A stretch of 45,030 nt of DNA from a virus, in the IMG/VR virus record IMGVR_UViG_3300011442_000006, positions 1-45,030 of that record. The stretch is one strand, 5' to 3'. Shown piece after piece: positions 2,487 through 45,030 of this stretch (the first letter of the stretch is position 1; every line of letters begins with the position of its first letter). The notes under the pieces were generated by a model. That model did not search any database, was not told the DNA's origin, and saw only the letters and a list, made by a program, of their open reading frames with translations. Made by a program: the position numbers and the translations under genes.

Positions 2487-2852
2487 ATGAACAACACACA
2501 CATAGCAGGGCGGGAATGGTCGGGAATCTTCACCGGCCGTCTTGAGATTCGGCCCTCACTCACTGCCGACGATGTCACGATTCAAGATGAGTTTGGTATG
2601 AAGTTCTACACGGGCAGTCAGATCATTGACGTATGCGGCGATGAGAGGCTACTGCATGTAGTTGCCTCTTTCCCGGCCGTGTTTCCGACGTTGCCGGTCG
2701 CCAATCCGAACATCATCTGCCCGAAGTGCTGGACACGCGCCGCGAAAGGGCTCGGCGAGATGGTATGCGGCTTCTGCGGTGAAAGCGGCTGCGAGTCCTG
2801 CATCACAGACGACGGCGAGATGGTCTGCAACCATTGCCGGGAGCGTGCGTAA
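2487..2852 (+). CDS. hypothetical Cys-rich zinc-ribbon protein (121 aa)
   Basis: RBS AAAGGAG. The C-terminal half has CPKC...CGFCG..GCESC...CNHC motifs. Confidence 0.65.
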   Translation: MNNTHIAGREWSGIFTGRLEIRPSLTADDVTIQDEFGMKFYTGSQIIDVCGDERLLHVVASFPAVFPTLPVANPNIICPKCWTRAAKGLGEMVCGFCGESGCESCITDDGEMVCNHCRERA

Positions 2853-3031
2853 TGGCCAAACTCGAATGCAAGTGCATCCACTGCGGTAAGGTTACCGGCT
2901 CGACCTTGGACCCGGCCCGCGTTGGCACGGTCTGTCATGATTACGTCTGGCAAAAGCTGTTCAAGGAAGGGGCCCGGCGGCGGGCCCGCACCATACGACG
3001 TCAAATCATGGAGCAGGCCGCCAAACAGTAG
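2852..3031 (+). CDS. hypothetical small Cys-rich protein (59 aa)
   Basis: ATG 2852 overlaps the upstream TAA (TAATG). CKCIHCG...CHD motif with a basic tail. Confidence 0.5.
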   Translation: MAKLECKCIHCGKVTGSTLDPARVGTVCHDYVWQKLFKEGARRRARTIRRQIMEQAAKQ

Positions 3032-3063: not shown

Positions 3064-4278
3064 ATGTCTGAAACGAAAGATCTTGAGATTATTACCCCAC
3101 GGGCCGGCCGCGAAGTGGTCAAGGCCGACGACTTCATGCCGCTGCTATCGGTTGAGCAAGCAGTCGACCGTAAGAGCAAGATCAACCAGTTTATCGGGCA
3201 GGTTCTCAAAGAAGGCGACGATTACGGCAAGATGCCAGGGGACACGCGGAAAGACGCGAAGAAGGTCCTGCTGAAACCCGGCGCCGAGAAGCTCTGCTCG
3301 ATCTTTGGGCTCGCCCCGCAATACCTCGAAGACAAGATCACCGAGGACTGGACCGGCAGGGATCACGGCGGGGAACCACTGTTCTACTACGCCTACCGCT
3401 GTCAACTGATGCGGGGCGACCGGTTCATGGGTGAGGCGATCGGTTCGGCGAACTCATGGGAAATCAAGTATCGCTACCGCTGGGTGACGGAAGACACCGC
3501 CGAGGCGGCTGGATTTGAACCGGACGCGTTAACAAAGCGGGGCAGCCGGGCGACTAAATTCGAGCCTGATTTCGCCATCGCGAAGCGGGAGAGCTCGGGG
3601 CAGTATGGACACCCGGCCGAGTATTGGGATCAATTCACCGCGGCGGCCGGCGCGAAGCGGGTCACCGATAAGCAGCTTGGAACGCGGAAGTTTAACGGCT
3701 GGGAGATCTCGCTCGATCAGACACAATACCGGATACCCAATCCGGACGTCGCCGACGTGATCAACACGCTCCAGAAGATGGCCCAGAAGCGGGCACTGGT
3801 CGCGGCCGTCCTGGTGGTAACGAACTGCTCGGACGCGTTCACGCAAGACCTTGAAGACGGACTACCGGGCGAGGACGGGTCGAATGGTGGTACATCGACG
3901 CCGGCCGCCCACGGAGCCCAGCAGCAGACGTTACCGGCCGAGGAGCCCCCGTTGCAGCTTCCCGAGGAATTGGCGGCCCTGTTCGGCCCCAACGCCCCGG
4001 CAAAGGGGACAACAACCGCGTTCGCTATCGTCAAACGCGAACTGATGGAAGCTTTGCCGCAGAATGGCGAAGACGAGTATCGGCGCATTCTGGCGGTGAA
4101 CGGGATCAAGGACAAGGGCAACAAGATCGAGGACGTCAAAAAGGCGTTGATTCAGGGCTGGACGCTCGCCCGGTCAGTGAAGGCAAAGACCGGCTGGAAG
4201 CCGATACCGCTTACTGATCCGGCTGGCCAAGATAGTCACGAGAGCGAGAGCGACGACTGGGGGGAGGGCCGGGAATGA
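3064..4278 (+). CDS. putative single-strand annealing / recombination protein (Erf/Rad52-like, tentative; 404 aa)
   Basis: RBS AGGAGG. LLKPGAEKLCSIFGL and LQKMAQKRALVAAVL resemble conserved SSAP blocks recalled from memory. It sits upstream of a Gp157-like gene and nucleases. Confidence 0.4.
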   Translation: MSETKDLEIITPRAGREVVKADDFMPLLSVEQAVDRKSKINQFIGQVLKEGDDYGKMPGDTRKDAKKVLLKPGAEKLCSIFGLAPQYLEDKITEDWTGRDHGGEPLFYYAYRCQLMRGDRFMGEAIGSANSWEIKYRYRWVTEDTAEAAGFEPDALTKRGSRATKFEPDFAIAKRESSGQYGHPAEYWDQFTAAAGAKRVTDKQLGTRKFNGWEISLDQTQYRIPNPDVADVINTLQKMAQKRALVAAVLVVTNCSDAFTQDLEDGLPGEDGSNGGTSTPAAHGAQQQTLPAEEPPLQLPEELAALFGPNAPAKGTTTAFAIVKRELMEALPQNGEDEYRRILAVNGIKDKGNKIEDVKKALIQGWTLARSVKAKTGWKPIPLTDPAGQDSHESESDDWGEGRE

Positions 4279-4733
4279 CCGGTAAAGCGCTACTCGGACA
4301 GATACTGGCGATAGAGCCCGATGCCGCTGGGTGGCGTAAGCTGCCCAGTGGCAACTGGGTGAAGCTCGGCGACGGGGTGACGCTCGGCAACGAGGTGAAG
4401 CTCGGCGACGGGGTGACGCTCGGCAACTGGGTGAAGCTCGGCAACGAGGTGAAGCTCGGCGACGGGGTGACGCTCGGCAACTGGGTGAAGCTCGGCGACG
4501 AGGTGACGCTCGGCGACGAGGTGACGGAGGCCATCTATCTGGGGCACTGTGAAGGTTACCCGAAAACCATCGCGAGCGTGAAAGGCGTAGCTTACATATC
4601 GGCGGGATGTCGGTGGTTTACATTGACGGCGGCGCTGAAACACTGGGAAAGCCGTGATGATCGGCCAATCACAAGGGCGGTCATGCTGGCGGCGGTGGAA
4701 ATCGCACGGATTAAGGGCTGGACTCACGAATAA
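4275..4733 (+). CDS. hexapeptide-repeat protein (152 aa) with conserved C-terminal domain
   Basis: About ten consecutive LG(D/N)xV(K/T) hexapeptides encoded by an 18-nt tandem repeat. The C-terminal block is ISAGCRWFTLTAALKHWESR. The ATGA start overlaps the upstream stop. Confidence 0.7.
   Translation: MTGKALLGQILAIEPDAAGWRKLPSGNWVKLGDGVTLGNEVKLGDGVTLGNWVKLGNEVKLGDGVTLGNWVKLGDEVTLGDEVTEAIYLGHCEGYPKTIASVKGVAYISAGCRWFTLTAALKHWESRDDRPITRAVMLAAVEIARIKGWTHE
4350..4526 (+). repeat. 18-nt (36-nt super-unit) tandem repeat, ~9.8 copies, coding
   Basis: ggcaactgggtgaagctc / ggcgacggggtgacgctc / ggcaacgaggtgaagctc units are repeated almost without substitutions. Confidence 0.9.
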
Positions 4734-4975: not shown

Positions 4976-5246
4976 CTTATCGGTAGTCGACCAGGCGGGA
5001 CTGCTTGATTCGTTGAACACGCTACACCGGATGAAGAAACGGCAGCCGGGGGAGACTCAGGCGGTACGGAGGGCGCATCGATTCGGCGCAAGTACGGTGT
5101 GTTCCGTGTGCGGGCTCGATGGCGACCAGGCGGTTCCCGGCAAGTGTCCGGGGCGGCCGGGACAACCAGAGCAACAGGAGTCGTTACTCGACGGGCTCAA
5201 CTCCGGTGTGGGTCCGCGGCAGGGCCCAAATGGAGATGAAGGATGA
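4926..5246 (+). CDS. hypothetical protein (106 aa)
   Basis: Strong RBS GAGGAGGAG directly upstream of ATG 4926. Confidence 0.6.
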   Translation: MGLTKTTREKLEDAFFDLSVVDQAGLLDSLNTLHRMKKRQPGETQAVRRAHRFGASTVCSVCGLDGDQAVPGKCPGRPGQPEQQESLLDGLNSGVGPRQGPNGDEG

Positions 5247-5941
5247 GCGACGAACTAGTAGCCAAGCCCCGCGAGACCCTGTTTCAGATCAATGAGACGT
5301 TGGCCGATCTGCTGGCGGTTCGTAGCGACATGCTGGCGAGCGACCCTCCGGAGGATGTCTCGGCGATCGACGGGGAGATCATCAAGTATTTCCAGAAAGA
5401 GGTAGCCAAGGCCGATGCGATCATCCCGCTCTGGCGATACTTCGAAACGGCCGCGGCAACCGCTCGAGCGGAAGCAGTGCGGCTGAAAGCCTACGCCGAG
5501 GACGTCGAGGGCCAGCTTGAGCACCTGAAATTGCGGGTGAAAGAAGTGATGATCCAGTTCGAAAAGAAGAGTATCGCCGGCACGCACGGGCGGCTGATGC
5601 TCAAAGGGAACGGGGGCTCGGCGCCGATCCAGATCAACGAAGAGGTGCTACCAGACGATCTTTGTAAGTGGGAGGGCACTATCTACGGTACGGCGTGGTG
5701 CCATATTCCTCCACACTTCAAGGCCCGGTCCGACGTGAAGATGAAGCGGCTGCCGAGTAACACGAGGATACGTGAGGCCCTGGCGAAGCGTTGTGAGCCG
5801 TGTCAAGGGACTGGAAAAGCTATCGACGGCCGGCACATGGGCGATGAAGCTATGACGTGCGCCGAGTGTGAGGGTGATGGCAAGGCCCGCGTACCTGGGG
5901 CCCGGCTGCTCGAGCGGGGAAACCACGTCGAGATACGCTGA
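5243..5941 (+). CDS. Gp157-family protein fused to a DnaJ-type zinc finger (232 aa)
   Basis: The N-terminal 120 aa have the coiled-coil pattern typical of siphovirus Gp157 family proteins. The C-terminus has CEPCQGTGK and CAECEGDGK (CxxCxGxG x2). Confidence 0.55.
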   Translation: MSDELVAKPRETLFQINETLADLLAVRSDMLASDPPEDVSAIDGEIIKYFQKEVAKADAIIPLWRYFETAAATARAEAVRLKAYAEDVEGQLEHLKLRVKEVMIQFEKKSIAGTHGRLMLKGNGGSAPIQINEEVLPDDLCKWEGTIYGTAWCHIPPHFKARSDVKMKRLPSNTRIREALAKRCEPCQGTGKAIDGRHMGDEAMTCAECEGDGKARVPGARLLERGNHVEIR

Positions 5942-9102: not shown

Positions 9103-9374
9103 CTCCGGCCGAGCGGGTGAAACTCTACGACAAAATTGGGGAAGTTCGGGTTGCTCCGCTGAAGAAAAAGACGTATCGGCGCCACGTGGAGCCGGTTGGG
9201 GACGGAAACCCAAAGCCGGGCTGCGTCAAGCCCCATATCCCGAAGCCGATACCTCCGAGCGTGCTGGCGGCGTCGGCGGACGAACTGGTGGCGGCCGGGT
9301 ACGGGAACTGGGAGCGGTCCCGGATACCGGGAGACTGGAAATCAAAGCCACGGGCTCGGGGCGTTGATGAGTAG
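9099..9374 (+). CDS. hypothetical protein (91 aa)
   Basis: ORF track. ATGA overlap with the upstream stop. Confidence 0.55.
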   Translation: MTPAERVKLYDKIGEVRVAPLKKKTYRRHVEPVGDGNPKPGCVKPHIPKPIPPSVLAASADELVAAGYGNWERSRIPGDWKSKPRARGVDE

Positions 9375-9385
9375 TCTAAACCAGA

Positions 9386-9697
9386 ATGAATCGTAGCGAC
9401 TCAGTTCGGCTCTCGACGGTGATAGCGAATATCTACAACCGAATTGGTTCGCAGGTATCGAACGAAATCGTTGTAGCGGCTCTGGCGTGCCCGGTATGTC
9501 ACGCCAGGGCGGATGAAGGATGCACGGGGCAGTACGGCACGCGAAGCCGGTCTAACCTGCATGCGGATCGGCGAGTAGCGGCCCGGCAAGTGTTGAAATC
9601 CGAGGCGTGGGTCAAGTTCAGGGATGAACTAAAGGCCCGGCTGATCGACCGAGAATTAGAGGAGTACGGCATATTCCGATTACTCGAAAAGCTATAA
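9386..9697 (+). CDS. hypothetical zinc-finger protein (103 aa)
   Basis: CPVCHARADEGC...H motif. ATG lies 8 nt after TAGTCT. Confidence 0.55.
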   Translation: MNRSDSVRLSTVIANIYNRIGSQVSNEIVVAALACPVCHARADEGCTGQYGTRSRSNLHADRRVAARQVLKSEAWVKFRDELKARLIDRELEEYGIFRLLEKL

Positions 9698-9750
9698 GGA
9701 AACGCCGACCCGGGCCCCCACGCCGGGGCCGAGTCGTCAATCCGAAGTAC

Positions 9751-10011
9751 ATGGCTTGGATGCATGAGACGCAGGCCTGCCTCGTTACCGGCACTATCCG
9801 GTTGCTCGAATTTCACCACGTGCGAAAGCATGCCGGCGACCAGAAAGACGACACACGCGGGGTAATGCTCACGGTTGGGTATCATCGGATCGGCGTCGAC
9901 GCGGTCGAAACGATCGGCGATCGCCGGTTTCAGGAGAAGTTCGACGTGGACTTCGAGGCGGAAATCAAGCGGTGTAACGCGGAGTATGTGGCGCAGGGTG
10001 GGAAGCTGTGA
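9751..10011 (+). CDS. DUF968/Ref-like HNH-fold protein (tentative; 86 aa from first ATG)
   Basis: YMAWMHETQACLVTG...EFHHVRKHAG...D resembles the DUF968 pattern. The frame is open and family-like (RKRRPGPPRRGRVVNPKY) back to 9628 without a canonical start. Confidence 0.4.
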   Translation: MAWMHETQACLVTGTIRLLEFHHVRKHAGDQKDDTRGVMLTVGYHRIGVDAVETIGDRRFQEKFDVDFEAEIKRCNAEYVAQGGKL

Positions 10012-10253
10012 TCGACGAAGCTCTGGCGAAGAAGTTACGGCTGCAAGGGATCAGTAAGCACGCGCGGCCGGCATTCTTCCAGGGACATCGAATCGACCGC
10101 AACGCGAACTTTACCCACCATTGTTGCTGGCTCTGTGGACGTTGGGAGCCGTGCGAGATGGAGCAATGCGACCATGCGGTATGTGTTCGAATCCTTCCGT
10201 GTTGTGACCCGAACGTGATCGAACGGCAGGGTAAGCGGAAGGCGAAGCGATGA
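10008..10253 (+). CDS. Cys/His-rich small protein (81 aa), Com-like position upstream of the Mom-like gene
   Basis: HHCCWLCGRWEPCEMEQCDHAVCVRILPCC. The GTGA overlap is at the 5' end and the ATGA overlap with the Mom-like gene is at the 3' end. Confidence 0.5.
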   Translation: MIDEALAKKLRLQGISKHARPAFFQGHRIDRNANFTHHCCWLCGRWEPCEMEQCDHAVCVRILPCCDPNVIERQGKRKAKR

Positions 10254-10825
10254 ATCAGGGGAATCTTTTCGGGATCGACGGCATGAGCACGGGCGAGCTA
10301 CTGGCTGAGAATCACTACCTTGGTCAATCGCAGCGAGGGCAGACGTATCGAGATGAACACGGCGTCATGATGTTCGCGAATCCGTCGTCTCGCCGGCTAC
10401 CTCAACACTCATGGCTCGAACTGGTGCGATGGTGTATCGTCGACCGGGAGAAAAACGCCGGCTCGCGGCAGTGGGGCAAGGTGCGACTGTGGCTGTTGCG
10501 AGAGTTTCCAGAGGTAACGACAATCGTTAGTTACAGCGATCCCGCAGCGGGACATACGGGCTCGCTATACCGGGCTTGCAACTGGCTTTGGGCGCCGACA
10601 TGGCATCGGTTGCGACCACCGCCGAGCGGAAACGGTTCATGGACGGACGGTAAGCGGCAGGAGGTAAAAGACCGCTGGGTTTTCCCTCTGAGAAAATCGT
10701 CGGAGCGGGCGTCTATTCTGGCGATCAACGATGAAGGCGTTCGGGCAGCGATGCCGTGGGCGGAGTTTCAGGAGAAGCGGGGCGGCGATTATAAACGGTG
10801 GCTCGCAGGGGTCACAAGACCGTGA
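10250..10825 (+). CDS. Mom-like GNAT-fold DNA-modification enzyme candidate (191 aa)
   Basis: NHYLG...LELVRWCI...NAGSRQWG...IVSYSDPAAGHTGSLYRACNWLW parallels Mu Mom blocks HYSRS / LELNRM / NAES / LLSFSDGKEGNVGYIYQATNWLY. The Mu sequence is recalled from memory. Confidence 0.6.
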   Translation: MNQGNLFGIDGMSTGELLAENHYLGQSQRGQTYRDEHGVMMFANPSSRRLPQHSWLELVRWCIVDREKNAGSRQWGKVRLWLLREFPEVTTIVSYSDPAAGHTGSLYRACNWLWAPTWHRLRPPPSGNGSWTDGKRQEVKDRWVFPLRKSSERASILAINDEGVRAAMPWAEFQEKRGGDYKRWLAGVTRP

Positions 10826-10995
10826 GGCGAAAGAAGAAAGTAAAACGGCCCCTCCCGCCATCGTGCAGAGCGTGCGGCTTCTCTGGTCAGATTTATGATG
10901 AAAGGTTGGAAGCAGTACGCTTTTGCTCTTGCCCGCTTGGTATCTGGAGAAAACAGCAATGGCAGAGAAGACAGTACCTCACAGCGGAAAGATGA
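10822..10995 (+). CDS. hypothetical small Cys-rich protein (57 aa)
   Basis: GTG 10822 overlaps the upstream TGA (GTGA). CRACG...CSCPLG motif with a basic N-terminus. Confidence 0.4.
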   Translation: MRRKKKVKRPLPPSCRACGFSGQIYDERLEAVRFCSCPLGIWRKQQWQRRQYLTAER

Positions 10996-11144
10996 AACGA
11001 GAGCGGTGTTACAGCATTCCAACCAAAGACGGGGAGTCGACAATCCGGATCAGGGCATCGAAGCGGCCGACCGGCAAAACCCTCAAGGCTCTACAAAACT
11101 TGTTCGCCGTAGCTCTGAAGAACTTGACCGATTGCGCCCAATAA
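10992..11144 (+). CDS. hypothetical small protein (50 aa)
   Basis: ATG 10992 overlaps the upstream TGA (ATGA). Alternative in-frame starts are at 10959 and 10923. Confidence 0.4.
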   Translation: MKRERCYSIPTKDGESTIRIRASKRPTGKTLKALQNLFAVALKNLTDCAQ

Positions 11145-11170
11145 GATACCCTGTGCTCTAAAGTATAAGC

Positions 11171-11674
11171 ATGGACCCCGGTTACAAATTCCCAAAGACG
11201 GGCGGCCGTAAAAAAGGCACGCCCAACAAGAAAATAACCAGTCTCAAAGAACTGATCGCCAAGTACGAGAAGAGCCCAGAAGTGCTCATGCTCGAAATTA
11301 TCAACAATACTCTGGCGTGTGGCGTGTGCCGCGGCAAGAAGCGGACGCCGTACATTCTCCCGGCCACGCCGATGCAGAAATGCCCGAATTGCAAGCACGT
11401 CGCCGAGGGCTCGAAAAAGTTCATCGTGTGCCCCAATTGCAAATACGAGCCAGAGATCCGGACGGCTCTGAGAAAGTGCATGTCCTGTCTCGGGACGACG
11501 CGCGAGAACTGCAACCCCTCGCTACGCGGGGCGATGGCGGCCGAACTGATGGGCTACATCTACGCTAAGCGGAAGGCAATCGAAGTATCAGCCGGCGAGG
11601 ATGAGGACGGCGACAAGATACCGTTGACAGTGCACGTCAATTTCGTGAAACCCGCTCCCGCGGCGGAATCGTAG
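11171..11674 (+). CDS. putative terminase small subunit with zinc-ribbon insert (167 aa)
   Basis: The N-terminal KTGGRKKGTPNKK motif is typical of small terminases. It lies directly upstream of terL. Internal CGVC...CPNC...CPNC...CMSC motifs. Confidence 0.5.
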   Translation: MDPGYKFPKTGGRKKGTPNKKITSLKELIAKYEKSPEVLMLEIINNTLACGVCRGKKRTPYILPATPMQKCPNCKHVAEGSKKFIVCPNCKYEPEIRTALRKCMSCLGTTRENCNPSLRGAMAAELMGYIYAKRKAIEVSAGEDEDGDKIPLTVHVNFVKPAPAAES

Positions 11675-11808
11675 CACGAATTGGTAAGCATGAGAGCCAC
11701 CTGCCGGGAACCGGCTTTAAAGGACTTAGTAACGGTTTCACCGGGAAAACACTTTCGGCCCGAGCCGGGCATTGCTGGCATTCCTCCGGCGACTCCGTAG
11801 CACGATTC

Positions 11809-13125
11809 ATGCGATCTAAAGGTCTTAGGATCGACGCCCAATTTCCCGAAAAGCTTCAATGCCTATTCGAGCCCGAGTGGCAGTACATCGTCGCCAAGGG
11901 CGGCCGGGGCGGGGCGAAGTCGTGGGCATTCGCGCGGGCTCTACTGATCAAGGCAAGCGATAAGCGTCTACGCTGGCTCTGCGCCCGCGAGACCATGATC
12001 AGCATCAAGGACTCGGTCCACGCTCTATTGCGGGACCAGGTCGAGCGGATGGGCTTGCAGCGTGAGTTCGAGATAGGCGAGCGGATCATTCGATCGCGGC
12101 ATGGCTCAGAGATCACCTTCGCCGGGCTCAAGCACAATGTGCAGAACATCAAGAGCTATGAGGGCGCCGATGGCTGTTGGATCGAGGAGGCTCAGACGCT
12201 CTCCATGGATTCGTGGAACACGCTCGACCCGACCATCCGAAAAGCGGGCTCGCAAATCTGGATCAGCTATAACCCGACGTTTGAGACAGACGCCGTACAC
12301 CAGCTTTTCGTAATTCAAGAGCCCCCGCCGCGGACGATTGTGGTCGACATTGGTTGGGAGGACAATCCATGGTTCCCGGAAGAACTTGAGATTAAACGCC
12401 GGCAGATGCTGAAGGTCAACCCGGTGCTCTATACGCATATCTGGGGCGGCAAGTGCCGGTCGACGATCGAGGGCGCCGTATTCGGCAAAGAGATCGAGAA
12501 GGCGATGGAAAAAGGGCAGATGTCAGACTGGCCCCACGATCCACGCCGGCCGGTCAACACGTACTGGGATCTGGGATTCGGCGACAAATGCGCGATCTGG
12601 TTCGTGCAGAGCTACGGCGGGTACTACTATTTCATCGACTACGTGGAATCGAAGGGCGAAACAATCGAGTGGTACGTGAGGCACTTGCGGACTAAGGAAT
12701 ACAACTACGGCGAGCACTGGATACCGCACGATGGCGTGGACGCGGAGATTCACAAAAAGTTCGTCAATTCGAAGGACAAGAGCCCGGAGATGGTCATGCG
12801 AGAGCTTGGGCTCAATGTGCGGATCGCGGCGAAGAATCTGGTGTCGATCGGGATCGACGCGGCGAGGACAATCTTTCCGCTCTGCCGCTTCAACACCGAT
12901 AACTGCGAAGCAGGCCTCAGGGCTCTGAGGATGTACCAATGGGGTCCGCCATCGAAGACCGGGGTTATCAAGCGAGAGCCGTTGCACGATGACGCCAGCC
13001 ACGGGGCCGACGCGTTTCGTACTGCGGCGATGCGGTTAAAGCAACCGGTCAAGGAAGAGGAAAAGAAGCCGCCTCTGCCCCCGCCACGGGTGAAGATACC
13101 GGGCCCGTATAGACCTTTTGGGTAG
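11809..13125 (+). CDS. terL: terminase large subunit (438 aa)
   Basis: Walker A GGRGGAKS and Walker B CWIEEA. The C-terminal nuclease region has WDLGFGD...HD...DDASHGADA. Confidence 0.9.
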   Translation: MRSKGLRIDAQFPEKLQCLFEPEWQYIVAKGGRGGAKSWAFARALLIKASDKRLRWLCARETMISIKDSVHALLRDQVERMGLQREFEIGERIIRSRHGSEITFAGLKHNVQNIKSYEGADGCWIEEAQTLSMDSWNTLDPTIRKAGSQIWISYNPTFETDAVHQLFVIQEPPPRTIVVDIGWEDNPWFPEELEIKRRQMLKVNPVLYTHIWGGKCRSTIEGAVFGKEIEKAMEKGQMSDWPHDPRRPVNTYWDLGFGDKCAIWFVQSYGGYYYFIDYVESKGETIEWYVRHLRTKEYNYGEHWIPHDGVDAEIHKKFVNSKDKSPEMVMRELGLNVRIAAKNLVSIGIDAARTIFPLCRFNTDNCEAGLRALRMYQWGPPSKTGVIKREPLHDDASHGADAFRTAAMRLKQPVKEEEKKPPLPPPRVKIPGPYRPFG

Positions 13126-15859: not shown

Positions 15860-18097
15860 ATGGCACAGCCAACCCGTAAGGATCTCCCCGCATACGTCCG
15901 CGCTTGCTATGAGGCGTATATCAAGGCCGAGCAGCGGAACCGAAAAGCAGCCGAAGAGCGTTTGAAATTCTATATTGGTGGCGATCTGCAATGGAGGGAA
16001 GAAGAACTCCGAGCCCGTGAGCAGAGCCAGCGGCCCTTTATCACCATCAACCGTTGCAAGCCAGCCGTCGACCAGGTCGAGGGCGACATTCGGCTGAACC
16101 CACCGGGCCCGCAGTGTCACCCAGTCGGCGACGGGGCGGACGCCTCAACCGCCGACATCATCGAAGGACTGATCCGGGAAGTCGAGTCACGATCGAATGC
16201 AAAGACCGCCTACGCGACGGCCGGCAAGTACGTCGCGGCCTCTGGTGAGGCATACCTCGAGCTACGGAGTGAGTTCACCGGCGATCGCGAGTTCAGTCAG
16301 CAACTTTGCATCGATTCCGTGGAAGACCCGGCGACCGTGTTTTATGATCCCACCTCGCGACGCGCGAACCGGCAGGATGCCATGTGGGCGGGCAAGCTCA
16401 AGATGTACAACAAGGTCGACTATATAAGCCAGTTCGGGGCAACCCGCGCGGTGTTGCAGTCAACTGCGGTACAGCGGGCGGGCGGCTGGATTATGGACCG
16501 GATGGGTGTTGGCGGAAATCTAGCGGAGGTACATCGCTGGACCGGGGCCGGCGAAGGCCCGTTTTTTGTCGCCGAGTTCTACATGGTGACCGTCGAGCGG
16601 CGCACGCTCCGTATGTACACCGATCAAATCGCCCGGTACGACGATGAACCAGTTCCACCGGGAGTAACTCCCAAGGTCGACCCCAACGACAAAAAGGCGT
16701 ACACGCGTGAAGTGCCTGTCCGCACGATTACCAAGCACCTGGTCGATGCTCTCGAGGAATTGTCCGATCCGACCGAATGGCTGGGAAGTCTGATCCCGTT
16801 GTTTCCGGTGTTGGGTCCGGAGGTCTACATCAACGGGCAGCTGCATCGGCTTTCGCTTATCTCGGGAGCAATGGACGCTCAGCGAGCCTTGAACTATGTT
16901 GCGACGACGGCCGCGGAACTCGCGGGACTACTTCCGAAGTCGCCATGGATCGGAGCGAAGGGAGCATTTGAGGACCCGCGATGGGAAGCGGCGAATACGG
17001 AAATGTACGCGTACCTCGAATACTCGCCCGTCTTCGCGACCGACGCAATGGGTAACCAGGTGCTCGCCCCGGCCCCGCAACGGAACAACTGGGAAGCCCC
17101 GATTCAATGGCTTGAGATGTTGAAGCGATCGTTTAGCGACGACATCAAGGCGACGACGGCGACCTATGACGCGAGTCTTGGTGCGAATAAGGGCGACCAG
17201 TCGGGGAAAGCCATCGAGCAGTTGCGCTCGGAATCGAACGTCGGTAACTACAGCTACGCGGACAACCTACATCGGGCGATCGGCATTCTCTACGATCAAA
17301 TGTGCTGTATCTTTCCGAAAATCTACGACGGCCCGCGGGCGGTCACCGTGGTCAAGCCCGACTCGCAGCATGAAGTGGTCGACATCAACCGCATTTTCGG
17401 GGAAGACGGGATCGACCCCGACACTGGGCAGAAGGGTAAGGCAAATAATATCTGCCTCGGGCGGTATGTCGCGCGTGTCACGGTCGGTAAGGACTTCGAC
17501 ACCCGAAACCTCGAAGCGGTCGAGGCTCTAACGAACTTCTTCACTGTCGCGCCTCAGGCTCTTGCTGTGCCTGGGATCGCTTCGAACTTCCTCCGGATGA
17601 TCGGCCAGGGCAATCCGAAAGTCGAGCAGATGGCCGACTTGTTGCAGCCGAACGACGGCAACGAAGAGGCAACGCCGCAGGAGATGCAACAGAAGCTCCA
17701 GCAGGCAACCTCTCAGATTCAGGCGATGCAGGAAGTTATGCAGACGCTCGCTCAGAAACTACAGGCCAAGCTTCCGGAGATCGAGGCGAAGAAGTTTATC
17801 GCGGCGATGGACAATCTGACCCGTATCCGCGTTGCGGAGATCAACGCTTCAAAGGCTCTGTTGACCCAGCAGGCCGACGCGGAAGCCCGGCAACTCGAGA
17901 CCTCGCTCGGAATGGCTCACGAGACGGCGAGCGGGGCCGAGCAGCGAGAGCACGAAGACAAGCAGCAGGTACGCGATAAGGTAACTGCGGCGGGATCGCA
18001 GGCGGCCGAGCATGGACACGCGACGGAAATGGCCGAGAGCGCCGCGGACCGGGAAGATGCTCGGGCGGAACTGGCGGCGACCGCTCCCAAGAAGTAG
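15860..18097 (+). CDS. portal protein, P22-like (745 aa)
   Basis: The N-terminal block has QWREEELRAREQSQRPFITINRCKPAVDQVEGDIR and IIEGLIREVESRSNAKTAYATAG. The long C-terminal helical region is Gln/Ala-rich. The position fits between terL and scaffold/coat. Confidence 0.85.
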   Translation: MAQPTRKDLPAYVRACYEAYIKAEQRNRKAAEERLKFYIGGDLQWREEELRAREQSQRPFITINRCKPAVDQVEGDIRLNPPGPQCHPVGDGADASTADIIEGLIREVESRSNAKTAYATAGKYVAASGEAYLELRSEFTGDREFSQQLCIDSVEDPATVFYDPTSRRANRQDAMWAGKLKMYNKVDYISQFGATRAVLQSTAVQRAGGWIMDRMGVGGNLAEVHRWTGAGEGPFFVAEFYMVTVERRTLRMYTDQIARYDDEPVPPGVTPKVDPNDKKAYTREVPVRTITKHLVDALEELSDPTEWLGSLIPLFPVLGPEVYINGQLHRLSLISGAMDAQRALNYVATTAAELAGLLPKSPWIGAKGAFEDPRWEAANTEMYAYLEYSPVFATDAMGNQVLAPAPQRNNWEAPIQWLEMLKRSFSDDIKATTATYDASLGANKGDQSGKAIEQLRSESNVGNYSYADNLHRAIGILYDQMCCIFPKIYDGPRAVTVVKPDSQHEVVDINRIFGEDGIDPDTGQKGKANNICLGRYVARVTVGKDFDTRNLEAVEALTNFFTVAPQALAVPGIASNFLRMIGQGNPKVEQMADLLQPNDGNEEATPQEMQQKLQQATSQIQAMQEVMQTLAQKLQAKLPEIEAKKFIAAMDNLTRIRVAEINASKALLTQQADAEARQLETSLGMAHETASGAEQREHEDKQQVRDKVTAAGSQAAEHGHATEMAESAADREDARAELAATAPKK

Positions 18098-27458: not shown

Positions 27459-29077
27459 GCATCCCATTCGAGGGCTTCTGCGGGCCCAGCTACCAGCTCG
27501 AGGATAAGTACGCGGCGGTCGAACGGCTGGCCAACTGGCGGCTAGTCGCCAACGAATCACCAACAGAAAAGAAGTGGCGTCTTGCTCTGGGCCGCACGCC
27601 GGGAAATAAGCAGTTCTGTGAACTTCCTGTACCGGCTCCCTATAACGTTGCAAATCGTGGACTAATCGAAAACCGCGGCAAGGTCTTTGGCGTCAATGGC
27701 GCGATCGTCTTCGAAATGGATAGCGCCGGCGCCTTTGTTAACAATATCGGCACGGTAGTTGATGACGGGAAGCCGGTCGGCATGGTAGCGAACGGGAACG
27801 GTCAGATCTTCATTTGCTCGGCTAATCGCGGTTACGTGATCCCGAATCAAGCGATTCTCGGCGGGGCTCTGATCACGATCCCTTATCCGCATATTCCGAC
27901 CGCGTTTCTTGGCGCGACGTACACAACGTTCCAGGACGGCTACATCATCAACATTGTCCCGAACTCGAACCAGTTCCAGATAAGCGGCGATCCTGCGACG
28001 CCTGTCGGCGACGCGACGATATGGAACGCTCAAAACGTGGCGGTTCTCGCGGGCCAGTCCGACAAGTTACGGGCGTGCATCTCGCGACGTGAATACTTGC
28101 GAATCCTGGGGCAGCGCCGGTCAGAGATCTTTCAGAATGTCGGCACGGCCGGGATCGGAGCTTTCCCGTTCCAGAACTTTAACTCTACGTTTATCGAAAC
28201 CGGCATATCTGCGCCATTCTCGCTCGCCGACGTCGGCGACGGGTATATGTGGATGGGCGAAGACGCTCGAGGTATCCGGGCTTGTTGGCTCGATCGATCT
28301 TTCAACCCGCAGCGGGTCTCTAACTTTGCTGTCGAGCACTTCTGGCAATCTTATGACCACATTGACGACGCCGTAGCGTTCACCTATATCTGGAAGGGGC
28401 ACCTGATCTACCGGATTACGTTTCCGCGGGCCTATGAATCGGCGGTTCGCTTTCCGCTCGGGGCGACAAGCGGGGCCTTGACGAGCGCAACGTGGGAATA
28501 CGATGCGACTTTGTCGGAACTGATGGGCCGGCCGATCTGGTCTGAGCTCCAATTCCTCACCGGGAACGGGTTCTTTCAGGGCCGGCCGGAACTGTTTCAC
28601 TGTTACGCGTTCGGTAAACACTTGATCGGCTCTGGCGGCGTCGACGGAAACCCGGGCGCTATCTACCAAATGAGCGATACCGCGTACACCGATTGCGGGA
28701 CGGATGCGGCCGGGGCCCAGTCCCAGCAAGCCATCGTGCGGGACCGGATTTGTCCTCATCTCTACGCGGATAATGTGCGCATCCGGTACGATCGAATATC
28801 GTTCGATGTAATGCGGGGCGTGGGGCTTGACGGGTTCGCCGAGGATTCGATGGAGCCGGGGGCCGATCCTCAGTTACTGTTGCGGTGGTCAAACGACGCT
28901 GGCAACACGTTCGGGAACGAATTTAACCTGCCGGTGGGCAAGATCGGCCGATTTGGGACACTGGTCAGATTAAATCGGCTGGGACAGGGCCGCGATCGAG
29001 TGTACTGGGTTCGTTATACCGAGCCTACCGATATGGGGTTTGTCGGCGCCTCTCTCGACATCCGGCCCGGCACGTAG
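27455..29077 (+). CDS. P22 gp10-like tail hub / DNA stabilisation protein (540 aa)
   Basis: GPSYQLEDKYAAVERLANW...LGRTPG...RGL...VFGVNG...FQDGYII...QFQISG...WNA...SEIFQNVG...FPFQ follows the beta-propeller pattern of that family. ATGA overlap. Confidence 0.6.
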   Translation: MSIPFEGFCGPSYQLEDKYAAVERLANWRLVANESPTEKKWRLALGRTPGNKQFCELPVPAPYNVANRGLIENRGKVFGVNGAIVFEMDSAGAFVNNIGTVVDDGKPVGMVANGNGQIFICSANRGYVIPNQAILGGALITIPYPHIPTAFLGATYTTFQDGYIINIVPNSNQFQISGDPATPVGDATIWNAQNVAVLAGQSDKLRACISRREYLRILGQRRSEIFQNVGTAGIGAFPFQNFNSTFIETGISAPFSLADVGDGYMWMGEDARGIRACWLDRSFNPQRVSNFAVEHFWQSYDHIDDAVAFTYIWKGHLIYRITFPRAYESAVRFPLGATSGALTSATWEYDATLSELMGRPIWSELQFLTGNGFFQGRPELFHCYAFGKHLIGSGGVDGNPGAIYQMSDTAYTDCGTDAAGAQSQQAIVRDRICPHLYADNVRIRYDRISFDVMRGVGLDGFAEDSMEPGADPQLLLRWSNDAGNTFGNEFNLPVGKIGRFGTLVRLNRLGQGRDRVYWVRYTEPTDMGFVGASLDIRPGT

Positions 29078-29107
29078 CTGCTCACCTCGCCGCTCGGCAT
29101 TTTGCCG

Positions 29108-29116
29108 TGGTATCGT
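29108..29116 (+). promoter_or_regulatory. Extended -10 box TGGTATCGT, 7 nt upstream of ATG 29124
   Basis: TGGTATCGT then atgtccc then ATG, with no SD. Confidence 0.4.
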
Positions 29117-29123
29117 ATGTCCC

Positions 29124-29492
29124 ATGCAGGTTGTTCGTGGTCCTTTGATGGGCTGCCCTATCGATATTCCGCATGCGTGGCGAAACTGTCGATTTTGTTG
29201 CAATTCCAATACTCGCCGGGTACGAAAGTACGGCCCTCGCAAGCCTCAGACTTTTGAACAACGGACCCGCCAGCTATTGAGGACGGCGGTTCGGTTGGGT
29301 CACATCGAGCGGTTACCGTGCCAACATCCAGGGTGCGAACATCCCTTGACTCAAGGGCATCATGAAGACTACCGATTCCCTTTCGTTGTAACGTGGCTGT
29401 GTCAGAAACACCACAGTGAAGTAACAAGACAGCGGCGTTTTACCGCATTGTTGGCCAGCCTTCCCCCCGTCGAGGACCGGATGTTGCAGTAA
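29124..29492 (+). CDS. small HNH endonuclease (122 aa)
   Basis: CQHPGCEHPLTQGHHEDYRFPFVVTWLCQKHHSEV is the C..GC....HH.DY..P..V.WLC..HH signature. Confidence 0.7.
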   Translation: MQVVRGPLMGCPIDIPHAWRNCRFCCNSNTRRVRKYGPRKPQTFEQRTRQLLRTAVRLGHIERLPCQHPGCEHPLTQGHHEDYRFPFVVTWLCQKHHSEVTRQRRFTALLASLPPVEDRMLQ

Positions 29493-44495: not shown

Positions 44496-44506
44496 TTTGC
44501 GCAGTG

Positions 44507-44515
44507 TGGTATAGT
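44507..44515 (+). promoter_or_regulatory. Extended -10 box TGGTATAGT, 7 nt upstream of GTG 44523
   Basis: TGGTATAGT then tcaccct then GTG, with no SD. Confidence 0.45.
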
Positions 44516-44522
44516 TCACCCT

Positions 44523-45030
44523 GTGACGTTCGGCTCGCTCTTTAGTGGGATCGGTGGAATGGACTTAGGCCTTGAGCGGGCAGGGCTCGAGGTACGCTGG
44601 CAAGTCGAAATAGACCCCTACTGCAATACCATCCTAGAAAAGCATTGGCCCGAGGTGAAACGCTATGGAGACATCGAAGAAGCCCGCGGCTCCGAGCTCG
44701 AGCCCGTTGACGTCCTTGCCGGGGGGTTCCCTTGTGTTGACGTTAGCCGGGTTGGACTACGAGCCGGCATCGGCGCCGAGCGATCCGGCCTTTGGTCGCA
44801 GTTCTTTCGATTGGTCGGTGAGTTACGACCCGGTTTCGTGCTCGTGGAAAACGTCCCAGGTTTGCTTGACGGGGGACTCAGCAGAGTTCTCGGAGACCTG
44901 GCCACGGGCGGGTATGATGCTGAGTGGCGTTGCCTTTCGGCTGCACAATTTGGACTTCCCCACGTTCGGGAGCGGGTGTTCATTGTTGCCTACGCCAGGG
45001 GCTCAGCCGCACGGGGTCGCTGGGTCGAAC
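44523..45030 (+). CDS. DNA (cytosine-5)-methyltransferase, 5' portion (continues at nt 124 of the window)
   Basis: My translation gives motif I FSGIGG (44541-44558), motif IV GGFPCVDVS (44721-44747, Val in place of the usual Gln), motif VI ENVPGLL (44847-44867), and the start of motif VIII. Confidence 0.85.
   Translation, partial: MTFGSLFSGIGGMDLGLERAGLEVRWQVEIDPYCNTILEKHWPEVKRYGDIEEARGSELEPVDVLAGGFPCVDVSRVGLRAGIGAERSGLWSQFFRLVGELRPGFVLVENVPGLLDGGLSRVLGDLATGGYDAEWRCLSAAQFGLPHVRERVFIVAYARGSAARGRWVE
44908..45030. repeat. Terminal overlap, exact copy of 1-123
   Basis: See the first feature. Confidence 0.9.

Follow-up and report, generated by a model that had tools for sequence, protein, structure and literature searches.

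A divergent Mom-family gene and its Cys-rich neighbours in an IMG/VR phage genome

With Mom-type hypermodification of DNA, one gene suffices for broad resistance to restriction; the chemistry behind it has been solved only recently (PMC13219725). The IMG/VR virus record IMGVR_UViG_3300011442_000006, whose whole stretch of 45,030 nucleotides is called the window here, contains a Mom-like gene enclosed by two small open reading frames (ORFs) for Cys-rich proteins. A preliminary description of this DNA read the upstream small ORF together with the Mom-like gene as a counterpart of the com/mom pair of phage Mu. The locus therefore raises two questions, whether the central gene belongs to the Mom family and whether either neighbour is a counterpart of Com. 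The three ORFs lie exactly where that description had placed them and overlap as it stated, by ATGA upstream and by GTGA downstream:

10250 to 10825, + strand: Mom-family GNAT gene, 191 amino acids (aa), ATG start, TGA at 10823-10825; identified by PF25680, PHROG 1384, the AlphaFold2 fold and active-site residues.
10008 to 10253, + strand: conserved basic protein of 81 aa with a Cys/His cluster, GTG start, TGA at 10251-10253; 10 homologues, purifying selection.
10822 to 10995, + strand: very basic protein of 57 aa with a zinc-ribbon-like CxxC...CxC pattern, GTG start; adjoins the Mom-like gene in the three closest lineages.

Taken together, the analysis shows that the window encodes a divergent Mom-family enzyme, which probably modifies phage DNA after replication, and that the flanking Cys-rich genes are unrelated to Com.

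Family membership and fold of the 191-residue protein

The 191-aa ORF encodes a divergent Mom-family GNAT, because its product passes the curated Pfam threshold, finds Mu Mom as its best match in the PDB and keeps the residues tested in Mu. In the Pfam scan the Mom profile PF25680 matched the protein with 48.7 bits (E = 9.8e-13; curated cut-off, 27.1), and Mu Mom, run as the positive control, scored 253 bits over the whole profile. PHROG 1384, "Mom-like DNA modification protein", also matched (E = 4.1e-15), and chance does not account for a resemblance of this strength. An AlphaFold2 model built from an alignment of 60 subfamily members reached a predicted local distance difference test score (pLDDT) of 90.8 and a predicted template modelling score (pTM) of 0.86. 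The best PDB match of this model in Foldseek was 8bv8, the two-chain crystal structure of Mu Mom S124A (8bv8_B, E = 5.8e-6; 8bv8_A, E = 4.3e-5), with a probability of 1.00, 171-173 aligned columns and, for the best match, template modelling (TM) scores of 0.53/0.50. Ordinary GNATs ranked below it, with E values of at least 1e-3 and TM scores of 0.33-0.41. Matches among the predicted viral structures of BFVD included "Mom [Salmonella phage FSL SP-031]". The profile search and the structure comparison that the preliminary description had proposed as checks both return Mom (PF25680; 8bv8 via Foldseek), and its assignment of the gene to the Mom-family GNATs is borne out. The motif blocks that it had reported are present as well, namely HY (residues 22-23), LELVR (56-60), NAGS (69-72) and SYSDPAAGHTGSLYRACNW (94-112).

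Mutagenesis has identified H58, Y59, R111, S124, D149, R151, Y159, W48 and W181 of Mu Mom as important (numbering of Silva et al., PMC13219725); the numbers used in the mutagenesis of Karambelkar et al. are 10 lower (PMC7261163). In HMMER, hhalign and MAFFT alignments, H22, Y23, R60, S72, D97 and Y107 of the window protein correspond to Mu H58, Y59, R111, S124, D149 and Y159. The MAFFT alignment had 79 rows, 77 of them representatives that an exhaustive profile search had supplied and the other two Mu Mom and the window protein; each of the six positions is near-invariant in it (65-75 of the 79 rows). Mu R111, which Mom homologues share with one another but not with GNATs in general, has been proposed to function in substrate recognition (PMC7261163). 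The window protein is thus like Mu Mom in its GNAT core fold, in reaching the PF25680 threshold, in six active-site residues and in its basic isoelectric point (pI; 9.7, against 9.9 for Mu Mom), and, like mom, it is encoded by a single phage gene adjoining late genes.

A word-indexed protein search returned 1,661 homologues of the 191-aa protein; the best 120 of these 1,661 are 56-77% identical to it, and each of them carries PF25680 and is either unnamed or labelled "hypothetical". The exhaustive profile search yielded 951 representative clusters at E <= 1e-3, 44 of which reach 1e-30, and its distant family members match profile positions ~10-115 only. Relatives were collected from IMG/VR (12 contigs), from metagenomes (67 contigs) and from metagenome-assembled genomes (MAGs; 7 contigs), the MAGs being assigned to Alcaligenaceae, Hyphomicrobiaceae, Myxococcota, Solirubrobacteraceae and Deltaproteobacteria; the subfamily is thus represented both among phage contigs and among MAGs from several bacterial phyla. 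Within this metagenomic subfamily, recognizable by the signature SYSDPxxGH...NWLWAPTWHRLRPPP (also written SYSDPxxGH...WAPTWHRLRPPP), the window protein shares the invariant blocks, and the sole local peculiarity is the combination of small flanking genes found in this phage and its two closest relatives. Some members adjoin or are fused to DNA methyltransferases (N6_N4_Mtase in contigs L022/L023; a PF00145 fragment on P0035), and others are fused to helix-turn-helix (HTH), LAGLIDADG or treble-clef domains. In L042 and L085, apparent C5 cytosine methyltransferase (C5-MTase) motifs can be read from the translations downstream of the Mom-like gene. This large uncharacterised branch of more than 1,600 sequences is well typified by the window protein, and because the branch keeps the catalytic core and differs in the putative DNA-binding region, it is a reasonable candidate for learning how far the Mom reaction generalises.

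Catalytic core and putative DNA-holding part

Mu Mom transfers glycine from Gly-tRNA(Gly) to the N6 of adenine in double-stranded DNA, and an on-base rearrangement then yields N6-carbamoylmethyl-adenine (PMC13219725). The preliminary description of the window enzyme as a GNAT acyltransferase follows an older picture of the reaction, one that predates the recognition of Gly-tRNA(Gly) as the donor (PMC13219725). By analogy with Mu, from which we infer the donor, the base that is modified, the time of expression and the role against restriction, the window enzyme would most likely act on double-stranded phage DNA after replication, late in infection. It would move an aminoacyl group, glycine from Gly-tRNA(Gly) in the case of Mu, to the N6 of adenine; the adduct would rearrange to N6-carbamoylmethyl-adenine, and the modified adenine would shield the phage DNA from restriction enzymes.

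A number of observations weigh against this reading. The PF25680 alignment covers only residues 16-115 of the window protein and profile positions 14-129 of 202, the similarity to Mu Mom does not reach beyond the GNAT core (BLASTP, 30% identity, 88 residues), and hhalign, comparing a profile of 60 subfamily members with Mu Mom, gave a probability of only 71% over 84 columns. Mu W48, a dimer contact, is not conserved in the window protein, and R151, which is essential in Mu, aligns to Ala99. The shorter Pro/Gly-rich loop and the C-terminal helical extension described below, neither of which has its like in Mu Mom, belong to the same side of the balance. So does a statement from the structural work on Mom, whose authors regard donor and substrate as not predictable from structure or alignments (PMC13219725). 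The chemistry was established for Mu Mom only; two metagenomic Mom homologues, picked at random from a similarity network, are described by the authors as active (PMC13219725).

The exchange of R151 for Ala was considered as a marker of changed chemistry or lost function and was rejected, as the majority of the family likewise has no Arg at this position. Most members carry Ser, Ala or Thr there, the family signature around the position being SYSDP(S/A)xGH, with Mu as the outlier. R151 marks Mu rather than the Mom family, because Arg is found in only 3 of the 79 rows.

Further differences lie outside the core, in which identity to Mu Mom is ~30%. The N-terminus that precedes HY is ~26-36 residues shorter than that of Mu Mom (H22 versus Mu H48 or H58, depending on the start used). 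In Mu, ~51 residues separate the N-F/W motif from the strand QYRYIRFL, and they include an HTH-like insertion (~175-209), placed between the alpha4 region and the next beta strand, that is essential for activity (PMC13219725). The window protein also has an insertion at this site, but only ~27 residues separate the NW motif from the strand KDRWVFPL, and a shorter Pro/Gly-rich loop appears to stand in for the HTH-like element. This loop is strictly conserved in the subfamily as W114-A-P-T-W-H-R-L-R-P-P-P-x-G-x-G-x-W131, and in the AlphaFold2 model the segment 116-140 is mostly loop, with a pLDDT of 63-68 and one helix of 4 residues. A helical extension of ~45 residues, 147-191, which Mu Mom does not have, follows the KDRW strand at the C-terminus. 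With a different loop and a C-terminal extension in place of the Mu HTH-like insertion, DNA recognition may differ; as modelled, the catalytic core appears Mom-like and the putative DNA-holding part appears to be built differently.

These features bear on an alternative in which the protein is a Mom-family GNAT with a changed substrate or chemistry, using another aminoacyl or acyl donor, modifying another base, or acting on a target other than DNA, such as tRNA or protein. The apparent replacement of the essential Mu region by the conserved W114-W131 loop and a new C-terminal extension would fit such a change, as would the restriction of distant members to the N-terminal core of the profile, the difficulty of predicting substrate and co-substrate from structure in this family, and a weak, sub-threshold match of the 191-aa protein to the NCBIfam XF1762 family, which shows how generic the core is. 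The retention of R60, the counterpart of the proposed substrate-recognition residue, and of the other five active-site residues speaks against it; so does a context beside methyltransferases and packaging genes, which fits DNA modification, and so may the metagenomic Mom homologues described as active. On this evidence we regard a changed substrate or chemistry as unlikely, and prefer a Mom-family enzyme that modifies phage DNA.

The small Cys-rich genes on either side

The overlaps and the Cys content that had suggested a com/mom pair are best judged against the rest of the window. At least 8 of its gene junctions overlap by 4 nucleotides, and the Mom-like gene stands within an unbroken chain of such overlaps from 9751 to 11144, which runs 9751-10011, GTGA, 10008-10253, ATGA, 10250-10825, GTGA, 10822-10995, ATGA, 10992-11144; the fifth member, a possible 50-aa ORF (10992-11144), has no homologues. 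Cys-rich ORFs make up ~10 of the ~60 in the window, and small Cys-rich proteins bearing CxxC are unusually dense in it (2487-2852, 2834-3031, 5243-5941, 9386-9697, 11171-11674 and 29040-29492), a density that sets the background rate for reading any single one as a specific regulator. An ATGA overlap and a high Cys content are therefore uninformative for a com role, because both are common in this genome. The 4-nucleotide overlaps reflect the ordinary translational coupling of the operon and not a Com-type activation switch; in Mu, com and mom overlap by 50 nucleotides.

An enrichment of Cys-rich neighbours at Mom-like genes was also considered. In a rough count of ORFs made by eye rather than from called genes, a small Cys-rich ORF lies on one side of the Mom-like gene in ~12 of ~50 distinct loci, and these ORFs are mutually unrelated. 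Enrichment was rejected, since ~12 of 50 does not exceed the background as estimated from the window (about one gene in six).

Both flanking ORFs are real genes, as judged from their sequence evolution: synonymous sites are saturated, and the nonsynonymous divergence (dN) is only 0.19-0.46, which indicates purifying selection. Both resemble Mu Com in being small, basic and Cys-rich and in overlapping the Mom-like gene. They differ from it in that neither has sequence or profile similarity to Com. The Zn_ribbon_Com profile (PF10122) matched neither the 81-aa nor the 57-aa protein at E <= 1, while the control, Mu Com, scored 36.8 bits; nor did it match the two homologues of the 57-aa protein at that threshold. 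In BLASTP comparisons with Mu Com the 57-aa protein gave no alignment, and the 81-aa protein showed no similarity (E = 3.1). No fusion of either protein to a Mom-like protein was found among 280 retrieved proteins. Unlike Mu, the window has neither a com gene nor a Mu-type operon.

Of the two neighbours, the 57-aa gene has the closer association with Mom-like genes. Its product has a pI of 10.6 and the Cys pattern CxxC-x16-CxC, near the CxxC-x16-CxxC of Com, and it matched no family in Pfam, PHROG or NCBIfam. Its homologues are 59-63 aa long and ~66% identical to the window protein over the aligned part. GTG 10822 was preferred to GTG 10798 as its start because it matches the start of the L021 and L023 homologues, whose first residues are M/S-R-(R/K)-K-K. 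In all three lineages in which the family was found it adjoins the Mom-like gene with a 4-nucleotide overlap: it lies immediately upstream in L021 (1438-1629) and in L022/L023 (672-851, 589-768), and downstream in the window.

The 57-aa protein could accordingly be a clade-specific partner of the enzyme, a regulator of its translation or activity or a nucleic-acid-binding subunit, forming with it a two-gene cassette in which it would be an analogue, not a homologue, of Com. Its constant adjacency in three lineages whose other small genes vary, its basic character, its Cys spacing and the purifying selection on it all favour such a partnership. The three lineages are related, however, with Mom-like proteins 71-77% identical, and inherited gene order could explain the adjacency. 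The gene is missing from the ~80 other Mom-like loci of the subfamily, which implies that the enzyme can generally do without it; its downstream position in the window would, for a regulator, depart from the Mu arrangement; and neither the dissimilarity to Com nor the non-homologous Cys-rich neighbours seen at background frequency elsewhere lends it weight. Further homologues were recovered neither from the word index nor from two IMG/VR scans with alignments. The 57-aa ORF remains the only hint of a Mom-linked small protein, and it is a weak lead because the phages that share it are related, the gene is missing from all other members of the subfamily and no further homologues were recovered. 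We consider the partnership rather improbable. It also seems improbable that the widespread subfamily, with its swapped loop and new C-terminal helical module, uses another aminoacyl donor or target context to install a modification other than that of Mu, in this clade perhaps with the 57-aa protein as partner.

A comparable change of side was seen elsewhere in the collection. An unrelated 67-aa Cys-rich protein (…CRACGVRLAWPG…CH.CAESG…), found in L059 (1920-2417) and L065 (533-736), lies upstream of the Mom-like gene in one contig and downstream in the other, echoing the behaviour of the 57-aa gene in the clade of the window.

The 81-aa ORF, which contains HHCCWLCGRWEPCEMEQCDHAVCVRILPCC, is the one that had been proposed as the counterpart of com, that is, as a Com-like zinc-finger activator whose overlap couples or controls translation of the Mom-like gene. 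Its position and ATGA overlap hold, and its product is conserved and basic: the database contains ten homologues, 77-85 aa long and with 56-80% identity to it, and eight Cys and His residues (H38, C40, C43, C49, C54, H56, C65 and C66) are invariant in the family, as is a basic, helix-like segment at the N-terminus. Structure prediction gave only a poor model (pLDDT 63.6), with which Foldseek found no fold match (best E = 5.5), and a scan of IMG/VR for the family found none.

The distribution of the family tells against the proposal. Only in the window does a member immediately precede a Mom-like gene; it does so in 0 of 5 other contexts (L014-L017, L018, L019, L020 and L021). In L014-L017, which represent a 39-kb relative, the homologue comes after a Malectin/PSCyt1 protein and before unrelated genes, and the Mom-like gene of the same phage lies apart from it, in the region between HNH and TerL, as seen in L022/L023. 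The genes next to the homologue in L019 encode a 58-aa protein, a 100-aa protein and then TerL, without any Mom-like gene in between, and in L018 and L020 the downstream genes are unrelated. L021, the closest relative, has the homologue close by, two genes ahead of the Mom-like gene, from which a 253-aa gene and the 57-aa homologue separate it. None of the ~80 other Mom-like loci of the subfamily has the 81-aa gene. The 81-aa protein is not a Com homologue and is not linked to Mom elsewhere.

The start region of the Mom-like gene was also compared with that of Mu, where the start of mom is sequestered by an mRNA stem that Com opens. The 101 nucleotides from 10195 to 10295 fold no better than shuffled sequences (z = +0.85), a comparison of low power, as the Mu control gave z = -0.57 although its known start-sequestering stem was present in the minimum free energy structure. 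The centroid structure of the window segment has no hairpin over the Shine-Dalgarno sequence or the AUG, and an AAGG at -11 to -8 is exposed; a start-sequestering hairpin like that of Mu is not evident in this low-power fold test. Overall, we consider it very improbable that the 81-aa protein is a Com-like translational activator. With the reading as a com/mom pair failing, the practical value of the outcome is at the level of annotation.

The 253-aa gene of L021 (689-1450), which separates the 81-aa homologue from the pair formed by the 57-aa and Mom-like genes, has no match in Pfam or NCBIfam. Its presence there marks the region as a hotspot of gene gain and loss.

Genome setting and other genes

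All long ORFs of the window are on the + strand, and its ends share an overlap of 123 nucleotides, which indicates a circular assembly of 44,907 bp. The genes that define the setting of the Mom-like gene are as follows:

9751 to 10011, + strand: small HNH-like ORF of 86 aa with the pattern C..G...HHVR...KDD...YH, the first of the chain of 4-nucleotide overlaps.
11171 to 11674, + strand: probable small terminase-like (TerS-like) protein with four CxxC pairs; PHROG 15261; 37% identity to the L021 gene that precedes TerL.
11809 to 13125, + strand: TerL; Terminase_3, 120 bits.
15860 to 18097, + strand: P22-type portal, downstream of the Mom-like gene.

The TerS-like gene lies directly upstream of TerL, and the packaging module starts with it, downstream of the Mom block. 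The genes upstream are of replication and nuclease type and include a Gp157-like protein, HNH endonuclease PHROGs, a replisome-organiser-like protein and a Phage_zn_bind_8 protein. The Mom-like gene lies at the boundary between these accessory and replication genes and the packaging module, and its position a few genes before TerS/TerL is also kept in the closest relatives, L021 and L022/L023. The only family match of the 86-aa HNH-like ORF, to PHROG 7566, is weak. By inspection, proteins resembling it can be read upstream in L021 (224-496) and L023 (254-592); tblastn at 1e-3 did not link it to these loci. An Rfam scan of the whole window gave no match, and a scan of 9300-11900 for promoters and terminators gave no + strand signal above chance.

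The preliminary description had counted a C5-MTase as a second DNA-modification function. Such a gene is present at the ends of the window, where it spans the junction of the circle (44496-45030 and 1-665) and matches PF00145 with 149 bits, although the match covers no more than the N-terminal half of the profile (positions 2-166 of 324). The rest of the frame is of low complexity up to an end, 'GYGNAVVP', that resembles motif X. A second frame at this locus reads 'LLPTP...ESEALMGFPEGWCD*', and an HNH-like ORF (220-579) comes after it. The same unusual arrangement recurs in the methyltransferase of a related phage (L014, 9706-10980); it could reflect a frameshift, a gene that is split or a mobile HNH insertion.

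In the early region, a 404-aa protein (PHROG 10048) is coupled through ATGA to a hexapeptide-repeat transferase (4275-4733, PF00132), the two together occupying 3064-4733. At the other end of the window, the segment 43027-44495 encodes a holin (PF05105) and, after it, a Tlde1-domain protein (PF10908, 44124-44495), whose gene is also conserved in L014-L017, the contigs of a related phage, and probably belongs to a lysis cassette.

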